IMG/VR virus record: IMGVR_UViG_2778261300_000001
Coordinates: 1-11,483 of that record
Source: a virus
Lineage: Duplodnaviria; Heunggongvirae; Uroviricota; Caudoviricetes
Length of the DNA: 11,483 bases
Strand: one strand, 5' to 3'
The position numbers and the translations under genes are program-made. This document shows positions 1 to 11,483 of the stretch, one piece after another. The first letter of the stretch is position 1; the number at the start of each line of letters is the position of its first letter. The notes under the pieces were generated by a model, which worked only from the letters and a program-made list of their open reading frames with translations, was not told where the DNA came from and did not search any database.

Positions 1-143
1 TGTTTACGGGGTTTTTTACTGGTTGATACTGTTTTTGTCATGTGAGTCACCTCTGACTGAGAGTTTACTCACTTAGCTGCGTGTCCACTATTGCTGGGTA
101 AGATCAGATCCAGCCTTATCTGGAGGACGGCAAATGCTTTCGC

Positions 144-2107: not shown

Positions 2108-3205
2108 TTAGAACTGGTAAACCAGACCTACAGCAACGATGTCATCAGTGCTTACACTGAGTGCTTTAGTGAAGTCATTTTTGTCAAGCAGGTTGATTTT
2201 GTAATCAACGAAAGTAGACATATTTTTGTTGAAGTAATAGGTTGCACCTACATCAACATATTTGACTAAGTCCTGATCGCCCCATACTCCAAGATCCTTA
2301 CCTTTAGATTGCAGGTAAGCAACGGACGGACGCAGACCGAAATCGAACTGATATTGTGCAACAGCTTCGAAGTTTTGGGCTTTATTAGCAACGAAGTGAT
2401 CAGCAAATACAGTCATATTCTGGGTTTCAGAATAGGTAGTGGCCAGGTAAATGTTGTTAGCGTCATATTTCAGACCTGCGGCCCAAACTTCTGCATTTTT
2501 ACCGGAAGCAAATACTTCAGGAAGAACTTTCCCTGCATTAACTTGAGTGTCGGTACGATCAGATTTCGCATAAGTTGCACCGATACCGAATCCTTCGTAT
2601 TCATAGGTAGCAGAGAAACCGAAGCCATCACCGTTACCTTCAGTGTAGTTATCGAAATCGCTACGATCGTTTTTGCCTTGGTACTGAGCAGCAAAGTTCA
2701 GACCATCAACCAGACCAAAGAAGTCGTTGTTACGATAGGTTGCAACACCAGTTGCACGTTGAGTCATGAACACGTCGGTTTGAGTCCAAGTGTCACCACC
2801 GAATTCTGGCAGGACGTCAGTCCACGCACCGATGTCGTATGCTACACCGTAGTTACGGCCGTAATCGATGGAGCCGTAGTCACCGAATTTCAGGCCAGCG
2901 AAGGCAAGACGGGTTTTATCTTTGGAGGAACCTTGAGATTCAGCGCGGTTGCCTTTGAATTCATATTCCCACTGACCGAAACCAGTCAGTTGATCGTTGA
3001 TTTGGGTTTCACCTTTGAAGCCAAGACGGGCATAAGTAGTATCACCATCATCTGCATCATTGGAGGAGAAGTAGTGCTTAGCATTAACTTTCCCGTACAG
3101 ATCCAGCTTGTTACTGTCTTTATTATAAATTTCAGCTGCCTGAGCAGACATCGCCATCAGTACTGATGCAGCTACAGCAGAAATTGCCACTGTTAATTTT
3201 TTCAT
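2108..3205 (-). CDS. nmpC: General bacterial porin of the OmpC/OmpD/NmpC family, 365 aa including signal peptide; prophage moron
   Basis: Signal peptide [23 protein letters not shown], then [17 protein letters not shown]... and C-terminal ...VAVGLVYQF, the typical porin beta-barrel terminus ending in F. I take the ATG at 3203-3205 as the start rather than the upstream extension in the track. The reading frame is uninterrupted. Confidence 0.9.
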
Positions 3206-4951: not shown

Positions 4952-5331
4952 GCAATCTTTGCTAATTAGCCATGAAATAGATAAATATCAGGCCAACGAT
5001 GATTAGTGCCAGGCATCCTAATTGGTCAGAATGGCTGGCATTTGATCGTCTTGCTCTTCTTGCAGTTGATTGGACAGCCCTCTGTCCTCGACTTCCTCTT
5101 GGCATTCCTCTCATTTATTCTCTCTCAACATTGATATTGAACTGACAGATGATAATTATTTCATGAAAGTGGTATCTCGTTGATTTGATTACGCTACATA
5201 GTCGCCGGATTTTCGCATTTATCGGCATCGGGCGGTGCAAAATTGGCATAATCGAAACGTAGAGTTTTTGGCTGACAACAGCATTAGCGGTCACCCGGAG
5301 AGTGTTGTGAACATGTTAATTACATGACGCT

Positions 5332-5652
5332 TTAGATGCATCGACATTTGATGATGCTTGTCAGACCTGTCATTTTCTTTGCTTCATTTTCAACATTGAG
5401 GAAGTTGGTTGAGCATATTTTTTGATAATCTCCAGTTGTGAATCCTGTTTTATCGATCTTGCGTTTCAAGGGATTAATCGTTTTGCAAGATGCTCTATGG
5501 ATTCTGGTAAAGCGTTCGTCAGATTTATTACCTTTACCTCTGGTTCGCTTCAATGCATTGACAACATATCCGTCTGGATTATCGCCAAGCCAATTACGAT
5601 AGTCTGATTCACTCTCAGTCTGAAGGTCACTTCTGAATACCTTTATGGACAT
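5332..5652 (-). CDS. Hypothetical protein, 106 aa, basic, 4 Cys (possible zinc ribbon); moron in the bor position between the spanins and cos
   Basis: Minus-strand ORF with GGAG 7 nt upstream of the ATG at 5652 (the track's 112-aa version starts at an upstream ATG at 5670). Translation: MSIKVFRSDLQTESESDYRNWLGDNPDGYVVNALKRTRGKGNKSDERFTRIHRASCKTINPLKRKIDKTGFTTGDYQKICSTNFLNVENEAKKMTGLTSIIKCRCI. It lies in an AT-rich island opposite to the flanking phage genes. I cannot place it in a family. Confidence 0.5.
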   Translation of the reverse strand: MSIKVFRSDLQTESESDYRNWLGDNPDGYVVNALKRTRGKGNKSDERFTRIHRASCKTINPLKRKIDKTGFTTGDYQKICSTNFLNVENEAKKMTGLTSIIKCRCI

Positions 5653-5796
5653 GAAGATACTCCTGTGCATTTATGGTACGAAGAAATAGCAAAAGTATTT
5701 TTACCGTAAATTGCGAATCTACAAAAGCAAAACAATGCGTAATATCAGAGTGAATATTCTGCCTTTAATGTGGGTCCTTCTGATGACCTGAGCTCT

Positions 5797-5817
5797 CACG
5801 GGGCGGGAGCGTCGCGG
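5797..5817. other. cos-like sequence (possible degenerate cosN) about 170 bp upstream of the Nu1-type start codon
   Basis: CACGGGGCGGGAGCGTCGCGG resembles the lambda cosN region ACGGGGCGGCGACCTCGCGGG: 17 of 21 positions match by eye, and 8 of 12 within the cohesive-end core. Its position relative to the Nu1-like start mirrors lambda (cosN about 190 bp upstream of Nu1). Confidence 0.35.
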
Positions 5818-5897
5818 AAAAAGGCTAGTTTTTGCATTTTTATCGGCCACCATCATCTTTGCATCTTATTGATTATTAATGGTTATTTGTTTTTTGT

Positions 5898-5927
5898 ATG
5901 TCGAATTGAGCGGTTTTTGTTCGACAT
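5898..5927. repeat. 8-bp inverted repeat ATGTCGAA ... TTCGACAT with 14-bp spacer, between the cos-like site and the Nu1-type start (candidate terminase-binding cosB-type element)
   Basis: Read from the sequence: 5898-5905 and 5920-5927 are exact reverse complements. A function as a protein-binding site is inference. Confidence 0.4.
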
Positions 5928-5986
5928 CGAACGCGTTTTCTTAAAGTTGTTCGCACGATGCATGTTTAAAGCTCTCCGGAGGAAAT

Positions 5987-7366
5987 ATGGATCATGAGTT
6001 GAAAAACTTGGTGCTGAATATTAATCAACTGGCGGCTTTATCTGGTCTGCACCGCCAGACTGTCGTGGCAAGACTGAAAAACATTCGTCCCGCTGGTGGA
6101 CATGACAAACTCAAGCTATATCGGTTGACCGATATTCTGACTGAATTTATGGGGTTACCACCGCCGGTTGCTGAGGGCGAAATGGATCCACATGAACGCA
6201 AAGCCTGGTATCAGTCTGAACGTGAGCGTCTTAAGTTCGAACAGGAAACGGCACAACTCATTCCGGCCAGTGATGTCAGACGGGAGTTTGCCATCTGGGC
6301 AAAAGCGGTCGTGCAGGTGCTGGAGACATTACCGGATATTCTGGAACGTGACTGCGGCCTGCAGCCTGCCGCTGTGAGCCGTGTTCAGTCCATTATTGAT
6401 GATCTGCGCGATCAGATAACCGAATCCCATCTCGGCAAGGAGCTGCTGGAAAAAGTCGAGCTAACGGAGGATAACGCCAGCAAACTGGAGGAGTTTTCGA
6501 AAGAGTGGCAGGACGCTAACGATAAGTGGAATGCTATGTGGGGCGTCAAAATTGAGCAGACCAAAGACGGCAAACATTATGTCGCGGGTATTGGCCTCAG
6601 CATGGAGGACACGGAAGGAGGCAAGCTGAGCCAGTTTCTGGTTGCCGCTAACCGTATCGCGTTTATTGACCCGGCAAACGGGAATGAAACGCCGATGTTT
6701 GTGGCGCAGGGCAATCAGATATTTATGAACGACGTGTTCCTGAAGCGCCTGGCGGCCCCGACCATTACCAGTGGTGGAAATCCACCGGCATTTTCCCTGA
6801 CATCAGACGGAAAGCTGACCGCTAAAAATGCGGATATCAGTGGCAGTGTGAATGCGAACGCCGGGACGCTCAACAATGTCACGGTAAATGAAAACTGTAC
6901 GATTAAGGGCATGCTGGAGGCGACCCAGGTCAGAGGGGATTTCGTTAAAGCTGTATCAAAAGCCTTCCCGAAAAAAGTCGGTACGTGGGGTAACACGGAA
7001 ACACCAAACGGTACGGTTACAGTCACCATCAGCGATGATCATAACTTTGACCGCCAGATTATTATTCCGCCCATTATTTTTAACGGTATAGCGTATGACG
7101 ATCCGGGGAGCGGAAATAACCCAGGAGGCACGCGATACACGGGTTATGGTTTTGAAGTTCGCAAAAACGGCGTATTAATCGCATCCAGAGAAACTAAAGG
7201 GGCCATTCCCGGTAGTTACAGTGCAGTTATTGATATGCCTAGTGGTGGTGGTAGCGTCACTCTGGAGTTTAAGATTTTCCAGAAAGGCAATCAGGGGGCA
7301 GGCAATATCACCGACTGTACGGTGATTGTGACCAAAAAAGCGGCTTCCGGCATCAGTATTCGTTGA
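5987..7366 (+). CDS. In-frame chimeric ORF (459 aa): small-terminase (Nu1-type, HTH) N-terminal region fused to the C-terminal receptor-binding region of tail tip / host-specificity protein J; deletion scar of the morphogenesis region
   Basis: N-terminus [32 protein letters not shown]... is HTH-like and sits where Nu1 would be, downstream of the cos-like site with GGAGG RBS. From about residue 185 onward ([86 protein letters not shown]...) it is near-identical to the lambda J C-terminal region as I remember it. It is followed by lom, as J is in lambda. Confidence 0.8.
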
Positions 7367-8100: not shown

Positions 8101-11100
8101 ATGGCAGTAAAGATTTCAGGTGTACTGAAAGATGGCACAGGAAAACCGGTACAGAACTGCACAATCCAGCTGAAAGCAAAACGTAACAGCACCACGGTGG
8201 TGGTGAACACGCTGGCCTCAGAAAATCCGGATGAAGCCGGGCGTTACAGTATGGACGTTGAGTACGGTCAGTACAGCGTTATTCTGTTGGTGGAAGGATT
8301 CCCGCCGTCACATGCCGGGACCATCACCGTGTATGAAGATTCCCGACCCGGTACGCTGAATGATTTTCTCGGTGCCATGACGGAGGATGATGCCCGTCCG
8401 GAGGCACTGCGCCGCTTTGAACTGATGGTGGAAGAGGTGGCGCGTAACGCGTCCGTGGTGGCGCAGAACACAGCAGCCGCGAAGAAGTCAGCCAGCGATG
8501 CCAGCACATCAGCCCGTGAGGCGGCAACCCGTGCGACTGATGCTGCAGGCTCAGCACGCGCAGCCAGTACGTCAGCCGGACAGGCCGCGTCGTCGGCTCA
8601 GTCAGCGACTTCCAGCGCAGGAACGGCATCAACAAAGGCCACTGAAGCATCAAAAAGTGCTGCCGCTGCAGAGTCCTCAAAAAGCGCGGCAGCTACCAGT
8701 GCCAGTGCCGCGAAAACGTCAGAAACGAATGCGGCAGCGTCACAAAAATCTGCAGCCACTTCTGCATCCGCCGCGACCACAAAGGCGTCAGAAGCTGCCA
8801 CCTCAGCCCGGGATGCGGCGGCCTCAAAAGAGGCAGCGAAATCATCAGAAACGAACGCATCATCAAGCGCCAGTAGTGCCGCTTCCTCGGCAACGGCGGC
8901 AGGAAATTCCGCGAAGGCGGCAAAGACGTCCGAGACGAACGCCAGGTCTTCTGAAACGGCAGCGGGACAGAGTGCCTCAGCTGCGGCAGGCTCAAAAACA
9001 GCGGCTGCGTCGTCTGCCAGTGCAGCGTCAACAAGTGCCGGGCAGGCCTCAGCCAGTGCTAGCGCCGCCGGAAAATCGGCAGAAAGCGCCGCATCGTCCG
9101 CTTCAACAGCCACAACGAAGGCTGGCGAAGCCACTGAACAGGCCAGTGCAGCAGCGAGGGCTGCTTCCGCAGCGAAGACATCCGAAACGAACGCGAAAGC
9201 GTCGGAAACCAGCGCAGAATCCTCAAAAACGGCTGCCGCATCGTCCGCCAGTTCGGCGGCGTCATCGGCATCATCTGCGTCTGCTTCAAAAGATGAGGCG
9301 ACCAGACAGGCGTCAGCAGCAAAGGGCAGCGCCACGACGGCATCCACGAAGGCGACAGAGGCTGCTGGCAGTGCGACGGCGGCAGCACAGAGCAAAAGTA
9401 CGGCAGAATCCGCAGCAACGCGCGCTGAGACAGCGGCAAAACGTGCAGAGGATATTGCATCCGCCGTGGCGCTTGAGGATGCGAGCACGACGAAAAAGGG
9501 GGTAGTACAGCTCAGCAGTGCGACCAACAGCACGTCTGAAACGCTGGCGGCAACGCCAAAGGCAGTAAAAGCAGCCTATGACAATGCAGAGAAACGTCTG
9601 CAGAAAGACCAGAACGGTGCTGATATTCCCGACAAGGACCGCTTCCTGAGTAACATTAATGTTTACAGCAAAGGTGAAGTGGATCAGAAAAAGGGGATGC
9701 GATACGTTGTGGTAAATGCCCCGGCGGGTGTCCAGGAAGGTAAATATTATCCGTTAGTGATAAAAAGGAATGACAGCCATCGGGCATCCCGCGTTGTCAT
9801 TTCAACGCCAAGTCGCTCAGCTAATCACAGAATGAATAATTGTGAGTTTAATGGTTTTGTTTGCGCAGGCGGCTGGACGGACCGGGGTAGCTATGCCTGT
9901 GGTATGTTCTGGGCTTATTCATCATCGGAACGCGCTATTCATTCCATTCTGATGAGTAATAAAGGCGATACCGTAGACAGCGTATTCTATATAGAAGGTG
10001 GGGCATTTCCCGTAGAGGTCTTTTTAGAAGAAGGTCTCTCCGTTACTGCACCTGCTTCTGATTATATTGTTGCTGAAACGACTTATAAATTTGGCGCAAC
10101 TGATCCTTATTCTGAATCAGTTGCGGTAAATTTAATTTTAGATTTTAAACAAGGTAATGGATTTTATAGTTCGTATCCTGTTTTGAGTAAGTCAGACATT
10201 AGCGGGAATAAGATTTACGCTAATGATGAAGTTATTGTCCGTAGTCAGAACGCGTTAAGGATGATTGCAGGTGATTACGGTGTCATATGGCGAAATGATG
10301 GAGCAAATACTTACTTGCTCATGACTGATAAAGGCGACCAGTACGGTGGCTGGAACGGTCTTCGACCATTTGCAGTAAATAACGCAACAGGTGAAGTGAC
10401 GATCAATACACCACTTAATTCTCCTAAGGGGATTAAGGGAAATTCTGATACAGCTACGAAACTTCAGACAGCAATAAAAATATCTGGTGTTTCGTTTGAT
10501 GGTTCTACTGATATCACTTTAACCGCTGCGCATGTTGCTGCTTTTGCCAGAAGAGCAACGGATACGTATGCCGATGCGGATGGGGGCGTTCCCTGGAATG
10601 CCGAATCAGGCGCTTACAATGTCACCCGCTCTGGCAACAGCTATATTCTGGTTAACTTCTATACCGGAGTCGGAAGTTGCCGGACCTTGCAGATGAAGGC
10701 GCATTACAGAAATGGTGGTCTGTTCTACCGTTCTTCAAGAGACGGTTATGGTTTTGAGGAAGACTGGGCAGAAGTTTATACCTCGAAAAATCTTCCACCA
10801 GAAAGCTACCCAGTCGGCGCACCAATCCCGTGGCCATCAGATACCGTTCCGTCTGGTTATGCCCTGATGCAGGGGCAGACTTTTGACAAATCTGCTTACC
10901 CGAAACTTGCAGCCGCTTATCCGTCAGGCGTGATCCCTGATATGCGTGGCTGGACGATTAAGGGCAAGCCCGCCAGTGGTCGTGCCGTATTGTCTCAGGA
11001 ACAGGACGGCATTAAATCGCACACCCACAGCGCCAGCGCATCCAGTACGGATTTGGGTACGAAAACCACATCGTCGTTTGATTACGGCACTAAATCCACG

Positions 11101-11483
11101 AATAACACCGGGGCGCATACCCATAGTATTAGCGGGACAGCAAATAGTGCCGGTGCGCACCAACACAAGAGTTCCGGTGCATTTGGTGGCACGAACACGA
11201 GCATTTTTCCTAATGGTTATACTGCGATTTCAAATCTAAGCGCGGGGATTATGAGCACAACAAGCGGTACTGGCCAGACTCGTAATGCAGGGAAGACATC
11301 ATCAGATGGTGCTCATACCCACTCACTGTCCGGCACTGCTGCAAGCGCAGGTGCACACGCACATACTGTCGGTATTGGTGCTCATACGCACTCCGTTGCG
11401 ATTGGTTCACATGGACACACCATCACCGTTAACGCTGCTGGTAACGCGGAAAACACCGTCAAAAACATCGCATTTAACTATAT
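8101..11483 (+). CDS. stf: Side tail fiber protein Stf, 3'-partial (at least 1127 codons; continues past the window end)
   Basis: N-terminus [80 protein letters not shown] is the conserved lambda Stf / StfR N-terminus. I translated the frame by hand from 8101 to 11483 and met no stop. It contains a long Ala/Ser/Thr-rich repeat region and C-terminal GAHTHS-type His repeats. It is missing from the ORF track, which appears to list only complete ORFs ending in a stop. Confidence 0.9.
8460..9480 (+). repeat. Low-complexity Ala/Ser/Thr-rich coding repeat region inside stf, with a recurring 23-nt unit encoding AK(T/S)SETNA
   Basis: Units GCGAAAACGTCAGAAACGAATGC (8709), GCGAAATCATCAGAAACGAACGC (8836), GCAAAGACGTCCGAGACGAACGC (8920) and GCGAAGACATCCGAAACGAACGC (9182). 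GCN-rich codon composition generates long shadow ORFs in other frames. Confidence 0.7.

Follow-up and report, generated by a model that had tools for sequence, protein, structure and literature searches.

The window, that is, the whole 11,483-nucleotide stretch analysed here, corresponds to the entire draft contig NOMQ01000055.1 (11.5 kb; assembly GCA_002518655.1), whose ends are positions 1 and 11483. Its genes begin with ninB, ninE, ybcO, rusA, ylcG and Q, after which a porin gene on the opposite strand, a holin gene, a lysozyme gene and Rz follow. An orphan open reading frame (5332-5670, minus strand) lies between Rz and a cos region, and to the right of cos a 459-aa open reading frame is followed by lom and a side-tail-fibre gene (stf) that runs off the contig end. 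The orphan frame had no match in Pfam, PHROGs, PADLOC or NCBIfam, an Rfam search of the entire window returned no match, and a promoter scan of 5200-6100 found none. This gene content (NinB, NinE, RusA, Q, porin, lysis genes, cos, the 5′ part of terS, the 3′ part of J, lom and stf) is that of a defective lambdoid prophage with a retained cos, of the DLP12/Qin type. A packaging module in which cos is followed by a full-length terS and then terL is absent, since the contig lacks terL. The head genes and most tail genes are missing as well, in agreement with the preliminary description, which had called the element defective. The visible sequence is this single 11.5-kb draft contig, so that the early region, the remaining prophage, a second cos or a co-resident helper would fall outside it.

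The 459-aa frame is an in-frame fusion of two phage genes. Its first part is a truncated small-terminase gene, terS, of the DUF1441 family (5987-6421, plus strand), which keeps codons 1-145 of 163 and lacks the C-terminal 18 residues. Its second part is the 3′ third of the tail-tip gene J (6419-7366, plus strand), which shares 97.5% identity with gpJ in complete genomes; Pfam placed Phage_Tail_Tip at aa 167-294 and Ig_GpJ_C at aa 323-458, downstream of TerS residues 1-145. A three-way alignment, with the window set against intact copies of terS and J, mapped the deletion junction to 6413-6418 (plus strand), where terS and J have a 6-bp microhomology, CAGATA, in common, imperfect over 9 bp. Compared with the intact 163-aa gene in the prophage of E. 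coli NT1F31, terS is identical up to 6418 and shows one mismatch, at 6419. On the NT1F31 map the deletion spans ~17 kb; lost with it were terL, two thirds of J and the genes for portal, protease/capsid, connector, tail tube and tape measure. The NT1F31 prophage itself carries terS, terL, portal, protease/capsid and tail genes and is 99.9% identical to the window over 5300-6421; this one mismatch in 1122 nt against an intact relative indicates that the deletion was recent. A recent deletion would leave the cos unaltered, and its retention would require no selective explanation. Judged from these alignments, the cos in the remnant is a passive relic of the recent deletion and not a selected function.

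Next, the family of the truncated terminase gene was analysed. DUF1441 (PF07278) matched aa 10-146 of the frame with E = 1.9e-42 and 145 bits, against a gathering cut-off of 35.1, and PHROG 141, annotated as terminase small subunit, matched the window protein with E = 8.9e-71. BLASTP between the window TerS and lambda Nu1 showed no similarity, and a PDB sequence search with TerS gave only marginal helix-turn-helix matches (E about 0.8-1). Homology to Nu1 became visible only through reciprocal PHROG profile matches: the window protein also matches PHROG 57, that of lambda Nu1, at 2.4e-8, and Nu1 shows the reverse cross-match. In NT1F31, PhiR40_1, phi458 and 569R4, terL directly follows the DUF1441 gene, as is expected for a small-terminase family. 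We conclude from these profile matches and this gene order that DUF1441 is a small terminase remotely homologous to Nu1. The lineage with a DUF1441-type TerS includes mEp460, PhiR40.1, Fels-1 and long-tailed Stx phages; cdtI and Tritos have the same cosN.

The preliminary description had noted a sequence resembling lambda cosN at 5797-5817, and both its coordinates and its sequence were borne out: CACGGGGCGGGAGCGTCGCGG is identical to lambda's TACGGGGCGGCGACCTCGCGG at 16 of 21 positions. The cosN itself occupies 5799-5814 (plus strand) and consists of a 12-nt cohesive-end sequence, GGGCGGGAGCGT, at 5801-5812, with CG dinucleotides on both sides. Across its joined ends lambda reads TACG-GGGCGGCGACCT-CGCGG; the two 12-nt cores agree at 8 of 12 positions, the left half being identical (6/6) and the mismatches falling at positions 7, 8, 9 and 11, and the CG dinucleotides of both lambda nick flanks are present in the window. 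The top strand is predicted to be nicked before 5801 and the bottom strand after 5812, which would produce 12-nt 5′ cohesive ends of GGGCGGGAGCGT. Upstream of this site, the heptamer GGGTCCT (5772-5778, plus strand) is identical to the lambda packaging-termination signal cosQ and is located 22 nt before the top-strand nick position, compared with 23 nt for lambda cosQ (48473-48479). The 22-nt spacer is a rare variant, seen as well in NT1F31 and the IMG/VR loci L059, L071 and L094. Likeness to lambda alone is weak evidence for the site, because a scan of the window with the lambda cosN 16-mer at up to 3 mismatches found no match, the real site having 4 mismatches. The window contains one instance of the composite pattern GGGTCCT-N18-26-CGGGGCGG, and none of 200 shuffles contained it.

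The placement of the cohesive end was further supported by phage records. A blastn search of 5740-5990 against phage records showed that base 1 of cdtI (AB285204.1) and of Tritos (OV696610.1) corresponds to window position 5801. Both records open with GGGCGGGAGCGTCGCGGAAAAAGGCTAGTTTTT, identical to 5801-5833 (33 bases, the 12-mer and the next 21), and close with GGGTCCT-N18-CACG (...CCACG). The record of Hafnia phage yong2 opens at the equivalent of 5813 (bp 13, CGCGGG...) and closes with GGGTCCT-N22 and its own 12-mer. These starts and ends follow the depositors' linearisation conventions, and the cdtI/Tritos start at bp 1 and the yong2 start at bp 13 bracket precisely the 12 nt that match the lambda cohesive end. 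Literature searches found no paper on phage Tritos, and a full-text search for GGGCGGGAGCGT found nothing relevant.

It has been described by Feiss et al. that cosN bp 7-12 commonly differ among lambda-like phages, for example at 9 and 12 in N15 and at 8, 9 and 11 in Gifsy-1 (PMC4669245). cosQ is conserved in these phages, as are the left half of cosN and its CG flanks, and right-half variants are efficiently nicked by lambda TerL (PMC4669245). The differences at 7, 8, 9 and 11 fit this documented right-half variation, which points to the normal cosN of another lineage and not to a decayed lambda site. The window shows the features by which lambda-like cos regions are recognised (PMC4669245), namely a cosN with an 8/12 core, an intact left half and CG on both sides, and a 7-bp cosQ at lambda-like spacing. 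Among 57 distinct cos alleles from 80 IMG/VR loci encoding this TerS, the cosQ heptamer, the CACG flank and the left half GGGCGG are invariant; the heptamer is also unchanged in cdtI, Tritos, mEp043 and yong2. Most of the 57 alleles have GGGCGGGAGCGT as their 12-mer, and the few variants differ at positions 7, 11 and 12. By this comparison, the cosN here is the normal one of the mEp460/PhiR40/cdtI lineage.

Between cosN and terS, the arrangement of candidate motifs also corresponds to the complex cosB of lambda-like cos regions (PMC4669245). We compared eight diverged cos regions upstream of DUF1441-family terS genes: the window (type A), phi458 (type B), L062, Stx2_14040, CP-1639, mEp043, Fels-1 and Chris1, with bp positions numbered from the first cohesive-end base. 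A candidate TerS-binding site in the position of R3, CCACCATCATC, lies at 5847-5857 (bp 47-57, plus strand) and contains a TCATCATC-like motif to which TerS would bind. A direct copy of the motif was present at bp 44-53 in all eight cos types and showed no variation among 21 type-A alleles; lambda R3 covers bp 50-65 (PMC9026076). A candidate IHF site corresponding to I1, AATCAATAAGATG, follows at 5862-5874 (minus strand), with 1 mismatch to the consensus WATCAANNNNTTR. On the minus strand, a site with at most 1 mismatch to this consensus starts at bp 61-64 in 8/8 types and is the sole such match between cosN and terS, and the same scan, as a positive control, recovered the lambda I1 region at bp 79.

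The exact 8-bp inverted repeat reported at 5898-5927 was confirmed, its arms ATGTCGAA (5898-5905) and TTCGACAT (5920-5927) being separated by a 14-nt spacer. The window contains 48 inverted repeats of at least 8 nt within 30 nt, so the repeat alone is within chance, and the DNA hairpin that it could form (8-bp stem, 14-nt loop) is no more stable than those of shuffled sequences (z = -1.19). What makes the repeat significant is solely its position and orientation, which are conserved across related cos regions. The left arm, on the minus strand, is the R2-like candidate site, ATGTCGAA reading TTCGACAT on that strand; the right arm belongs to the R1-like candidate site TTCGACATC (5920-5928, plus strand), assigned from its TCATCATC-like motif. 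At the R1 position, a direct copy lies at bp 119-123 in every one of the eight types, without variation in the 21 type-A alleles. An inverted copy of R2 type, with at most 2 mismatches and a start at bp 94-102, was returned on the minus strand in five of the seven other types (TCGACATC in mEp043 and Chris1, TCATCATC in Fels-1), and the scan at this threshold gave no match in CP-1639 and L062. The window copy has 3 mismatches to TCATCATC and hence was not returned. All three motif copies of Fels-1 are perfect TCATCATC. Shuffled sequences reached the observed number of motif matches in no more than 4.6% of cases for seven of the eight types.

Among the 21 type-A alleles it is the spacers that carry polymorphisms, such as two loop positions that differ in 7 of them, and the arms contain one singleton, a variant of the R2-like site. 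We considered the inverted repeat as a structure-forming element and rejected it, since relatives lose the complementarity of the arms and keep the motif in each arm: in type B, CP-1639 and mEp043, the arms are not mutually complementary and each retains a TCATCATC-like motif at the same position. The repeat does lie in the cosB interval, as had been supposed, with its arms being two of three TCATCATC-like motifs in a conserved layout. On motif and position, it is the putative R2/R1 pair of an R3-I1-R2(inverted)-R1 layout, as in lambda. Further downstream, the block TAAAGTTGTTCGCACGATGCATGTTTAAA (5942-5970, plus strand), between R1 and the terS ribosome-binding site GGAGG (5978-5982), is nearly identical in types A and B, whose surrounding DNA is ~75% identical. 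The terS start codon ATG at 5987 corresponds to bp 187, compared with 191 in lambda.

The cos-terS segment is widely distributed. Positions 5797-6421 are 98.9-99.2% identical to phages PhiR40_1, PhiR47_1, PhiR55_1 and vB_EcoS-606R10, and ~83% identical to the mEp460 group. PhiR40.1, PhiR47.1 and PhiR55.1 serve as temperate plaque formers in plaque assays (bioRxiv 10.1101/2025.11.03.685801). Three IMG/VR loci (L016, L020 and L023) carry the window allele unchanged over the stretch that runs from cosN to the start of terS. Among 5426 complete E. coli genomes, 2045 matched the cos-terS query, 631 of them at 95% identity or above, including O157:H7 strains. The exact cosN 27-mer was found among species representatives in E. 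coli, E. ruysiae and two metagenome-assembled genomes labelled Veillonella parvula and Bacillota, the latter two being probably mis-binned.

Taken together, our main reading, to which we assign a probability of about 0.8, is that 5772-5986 is the complete cos region of a lambda-like lineage with a DUF1441-type TerS, which persists as a passive relic beside a recent ~17-kb microhomology deletion and should be competent for its cognate terminase. In intact relatives, TerS would bind the three TCATCATC-like sites, as inferred from lambda, and IHF would bend the DNA between R3 and the inverted R2. TerL would then be positioned to nick cosN, cutting the top strand just ahead of 5801 and the bottom strand just past 5812, packaging would proceed rightward, towards terS, and cosQ together with cosN would terminate it at the next cos. 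In the contig, a microhomology-mediated deletion is proposed to have brought the last third of J directly behind terS codon 145.

This cos region resembles that of lambda in its cosQ heptamer, the left half of cosN, the CG flanks, the cosB between cosN and terS, the three repeated candidate sites of which the middle one is inverted, and the IHF-like site between R3 and R2. However, its R-site motif is TCATCATC-like and unlike that of lambda, and its R2 and R1 are nearer each other (bp 98 and 120). This motif, together with a DUF1441 TerS that lacks BLASTP similarity to Nu1, leads us to expect a packaging specificity different from that of lambda. Closer counterparts are cdtI and Tritos, with the same cosN and first 33 bp; PhiR40_1, 606R10 and many prophages, whose cosN, cosB and terS are identical or 99% identical; and the mEp460-type, Stx, mEp043, Fels-1 and Chris1 cos regions, which have the same sub-site architecture. 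The window differs from the cdtI, Tritos, mEp460, PhiR40.1, Fels-1 and Stx cos regions in that its terS breaks off at codon 145 and it has no terL.

Lambda and 21 have identical cosN, yet discriminate each other's cosB more than 1000-fold (PMC4669245). Because the cosB here has no lambda R sites and this cosB/TerS specificity rule applies (PMC4669245), lambda, 21, 82 and phi80 are poor helper candidates. The suggestion that a generic lambdoid helper of this kind could package the element was therefore not upheld, its TerS being of the DUF1441 family and not Nu1. The remnant cos is probably still cleavable, although by the cognate terminase of a type-A cosB only and not by those of lambda, 21 or phi80. 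Phage cdtI, which has the same cosN, encodes a TerS only 42% identical and lacks the TCATCATC-like motif, a pattern that fits modular cosB/TerS specificity.

Several other explanations have to be weighed against this reading. The preliminary description had considered that the site might be decayed, and a non-functional remnant of a lambda cos would account for a core match of just 8/12, for the failure of the lambda 16-mer to match at up to 3 mismatches and for the truncation of the adjacent terS. This did not hold. The cdtI and Tritos records open with exactly this 12-mer and the 21 bases that follow it, the same 12-mer is found in most of the 57 alleles and in PhiR40.1-type phages, and all four differences from lambda are confined to the half of cosN that varies naturally, the right one (PMC4669245). 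Intact prophages and plaque-forming phages carry a cos that is the same throughout or 99% identical, and the cos-terS segment here is 99.9% identical to that of an intact prophage; we regard decay as extremely improbable. It is also conceivable that the terS-J fusion is a chimera of short-read assembly, in which case the cos would come from an intact prophage and nothing would be defective. The window is a whole draft contig, genomes contain repeated copies of lambdoid prophage regions, a search of GTDB species representatives for the junction 32-mer gave no match, and none of the 5426 complete E. coli genomes spans the junction. However, an assembly chimera is unlikely because the parents have just 6 bp in common at the junction (9 bp imperfectly), far under the k-mer sizes of assemblers. 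The two genes are fused cleanly and in frame, and this contig is reported from 2 samples; little probability thus remains for an artefact. A slightly larger share, though still a small one, goes to the proposal that the inverted repeat at 5898-5927 is a terminator, an attenuator hairpin or the operator of another regulator instead of a pair of TerS sites. The repeat is exact, and the scan of 5200-6100 gave one terminator-like hairpin, at 5918-5933, with a T-rich tail. Nevertheless, shuffles gave a mean of 0.8 such hairpins and the stem-loop folds no better than they do. The loss of complementarity in type B, CP-1639 and mEp043 with the motif kept indicates that the motif and not the pairing is conserved, and a third, direct copy is present at the R3 position.

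The alternative to which we concede most, while still considering it unlikely, is a helper-dependent satellite or transducible element, in which the terminase of a related phage would cut the cos and package the remnant into helper capsids. The cos is intact, cognate cos-terS-terL modules are common in E. coli (the 2045 matching genomes among 5426), and cos-bearing PICI satellites of lambda-like phages exist (PMC9026076, PMC6739421). Cos-type PICIs such as EcCICFT073 with Rpp are likewise chromosomal, lack capsid genes and carry a helper-like cosQ and cosN (PMC9026076). PICIs are small and have their own cosB, an Rpp that redirects the helper TerS, and dedicated integration and replication modules. 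The window cosB is of the phage's own type, matching phage and prophage alleles and thus not unlike that of a helper; no Rpp-like protein is encoded next to cos, where the neighbour is a terS stump that, as far as the junction, matches the phage gene at 100% identity, and the contig shows no PICI hallmark. An rpp-like redirecting gene or a capsid-size gene is likewise missing from the contig. Termination requires a second, downstream cosQ-cosN (PMC4669245), and one cos is visible in the window. By analogy with NT1F31, the remnant would comprise ~28 kb of ~45 kb, or 60-65% of genome length. Efficient packaging in lambda needs DNA longer than such a remnant. Moreover, the deletion allele is very recent and was found on one contig only, with no sign of spread or selection. 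Satellite-like transfer of the remnant is therefore disfavoured.

We also considered, as a highly speculative extension of the relic reading, that the remnant might do more, either through a TerS(1-145)-J′ fusion protein that interferes with type-A terminase or through ~28-kb multimers in helper capsids; we hold this to be very improbable. The C-terminal region of TerS binds TerL in lambda and 21 (PMC4669245), and the terS-J fusion lacks the corresponding region. If the first version were true, a late-transcribed fusion that keeps the DNA-binding and oligomerisation parts without the TerL-binding tail, encoded beside an intact cos, would sequester or mis-assemble the terminase of a superinfecting type-A phage, which would amount to packaging interference. 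If either were true, prophage decay would be a route to a satellite or defence function.

Returning to the reading of an intact relic, the situation of a cos left in a deleted prophage is already known from cryptic prophages of E. coli K-12, whose chromosome, as Kotani et al. reportedly found in 1992, is cut by lambda terminase at the DLP12 and Qin cos sites. The site described here is real, intact and ordinary. It is the cos that is canonical for a common lambdoid lineage, it genuinely adjoins a truncated small-terminase gene (DUF1441 match, 145 of 163 codons) as had been claimed, and it parallels the cos-noh remnants of DLP12 and Qin. Like the cos-nohD remnant of DLP12 (and that of Qin), the window is a defective lambdoid element with Q, a porin gene and an essD-rrrD-rzpD-type lysis cassette; as in DLP12, cos and a small-terminase gene were kept and the morphogenesis genes deleted up to the tail-fibre region. 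The two differ in that DLP12 carries a lambda-type cos and a Nu1-type gene usable by lambda, whereas the module in the window is of DUF1441 type, and in their deletion end points, those of the window falling inside terS and J and creating the in-frame fusion. A cos beside a terminase stump is the expected outcome of a recent deletion. More generally, a cos that appears divergent by comparison with lambda may be precisely the one that works in another lambdoid lineage, which makes similarity to lambda the wrong yardstick. We found no earlier sub-site map for phages with a DUF1441 terminase in the accessible literature, and the present one (cosQ, cosN, R3, I1, R2 and R1) should be usable for these widespread phages, including long-tailed Stx phages and O157 prophages.

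By analogy with DLP12, the best-precedented consequence would be cos-stimulated recombination and module exchange with related phages, efficient transfer of the element being less likely. DLP12 keeps its cos between R/Rz and nu1/A homologues, its nu1 gene is functional in lambda, and half of the junctions in sequenced lambda-DLP12 recombinants adjoin cos, which is a recombination hot spot (PMC3945230). In the window, homology to nearly all other phages and prophages starts exactly at 5797, indicating that breakpoints pile up at cosN. The cosQ-side module is a rare variant, common to 14 complete genomes, and in L059, L071 and L094 it is joined to the other cosB type. Breakpoints at 5797 and a rare module joined to the other cosB type form the same signature as DLP12 recombination and fit cos-stimulated module exchange between phages and defective prophages.

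We observed that the homology shared by the window and nearly every other phage or prophage has its left boundary precisely at position 5797, which lies 4 nt to the left of the predicted top-strand nick. Among complete E. coli genomes, no more than 14 carried the module on the left, cosQ side of this position. Furthermore, a left module of the window type was joined to a type-B cosB, the class of phi458, in the related loci L059, L071, and L094. On sequence comparison, the boundary at 5797 is a mosaic breakpoint located at cosN, and such a breakpoint would be consistent with cos-stimulated recombination.

The conserved block TAAAGTTGTTCGCACGATGCATGTTTAAA was found at 5942-5970, just 5′ of the ribosome-binding site of terS, the small-terminase gene. 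This block showed almost no change between type A, the cosB class of the window, and type B, whereas the cos regions were otherwise only ~75% identical. This block may serve as an additional TerS site or have a role in translation.

Variants of cos were also observed among the relatives. The record LR595868.1 (mEp460_4F5; loci L002 and L003) starts 5 nt to the left of the first cohesive-end base, and its cosN is without 3 nt, reading GGGCGGGAGCG-CGG compared to GGGCGGGAGCGTCGCGG in every relative; this probably arose as an artefact when the cohesive end of the record was assembled. In the Stx-type phages Stx2_14040 and CP-1639 (loci L014 and L015), cos reads CACG GGGCGGGCGGCG CGGAAAAAGG, and the distance from CACG to GGAAAAAGG is 2 nt less than in the window type. 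The length or register of the cohesive end may not be the same in these phages. The exact cosN 27-mer was also carried by contigs of metagenome-assembled genomes labelled Veillonella parvula and Bacillota bacterium (L104 and L106); most likely, these contigs come from Escherichia prophages and were mis-binned. Another contig, IMGVR_UViG_2534681939_000021 (L051), showed 99% identity to window 5797-6416. Its last base corresponds to window position 6416 and thus falls within CAGATA, the microhomology at which the deletion fused terS to J. A second genome could therefore carry this deletion allele, its assembly having broken at the repeat, or the position of the contig end could be a coincidence.

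The backbone of the window resembles that of DLP12-like prophages that have nohD in place of the DUF1441 gene. A complete OmpC/NmpC-like porin gene (2108-3205, minus strand) lies between Q and the holin gene, the same placement as nmpC in DLP12. Between Rz and cos, an orphan ORF of 112 aa (106 aa as called) at 5332-5670 on the minus strand occupies the usual moron position; searches of Pfam, PHROGs, PADLOC, and NCBIfam gave zero matches for it. The side-tail-fibre gene (8101-11483, plus strand), which is open at the contig end, contains phage_tail_N, Gp34_trimer, and Collar domains, and the longest inverted repeat of the window (10086-10134, 19 nt, 89% complementarity) was located inside this gene.
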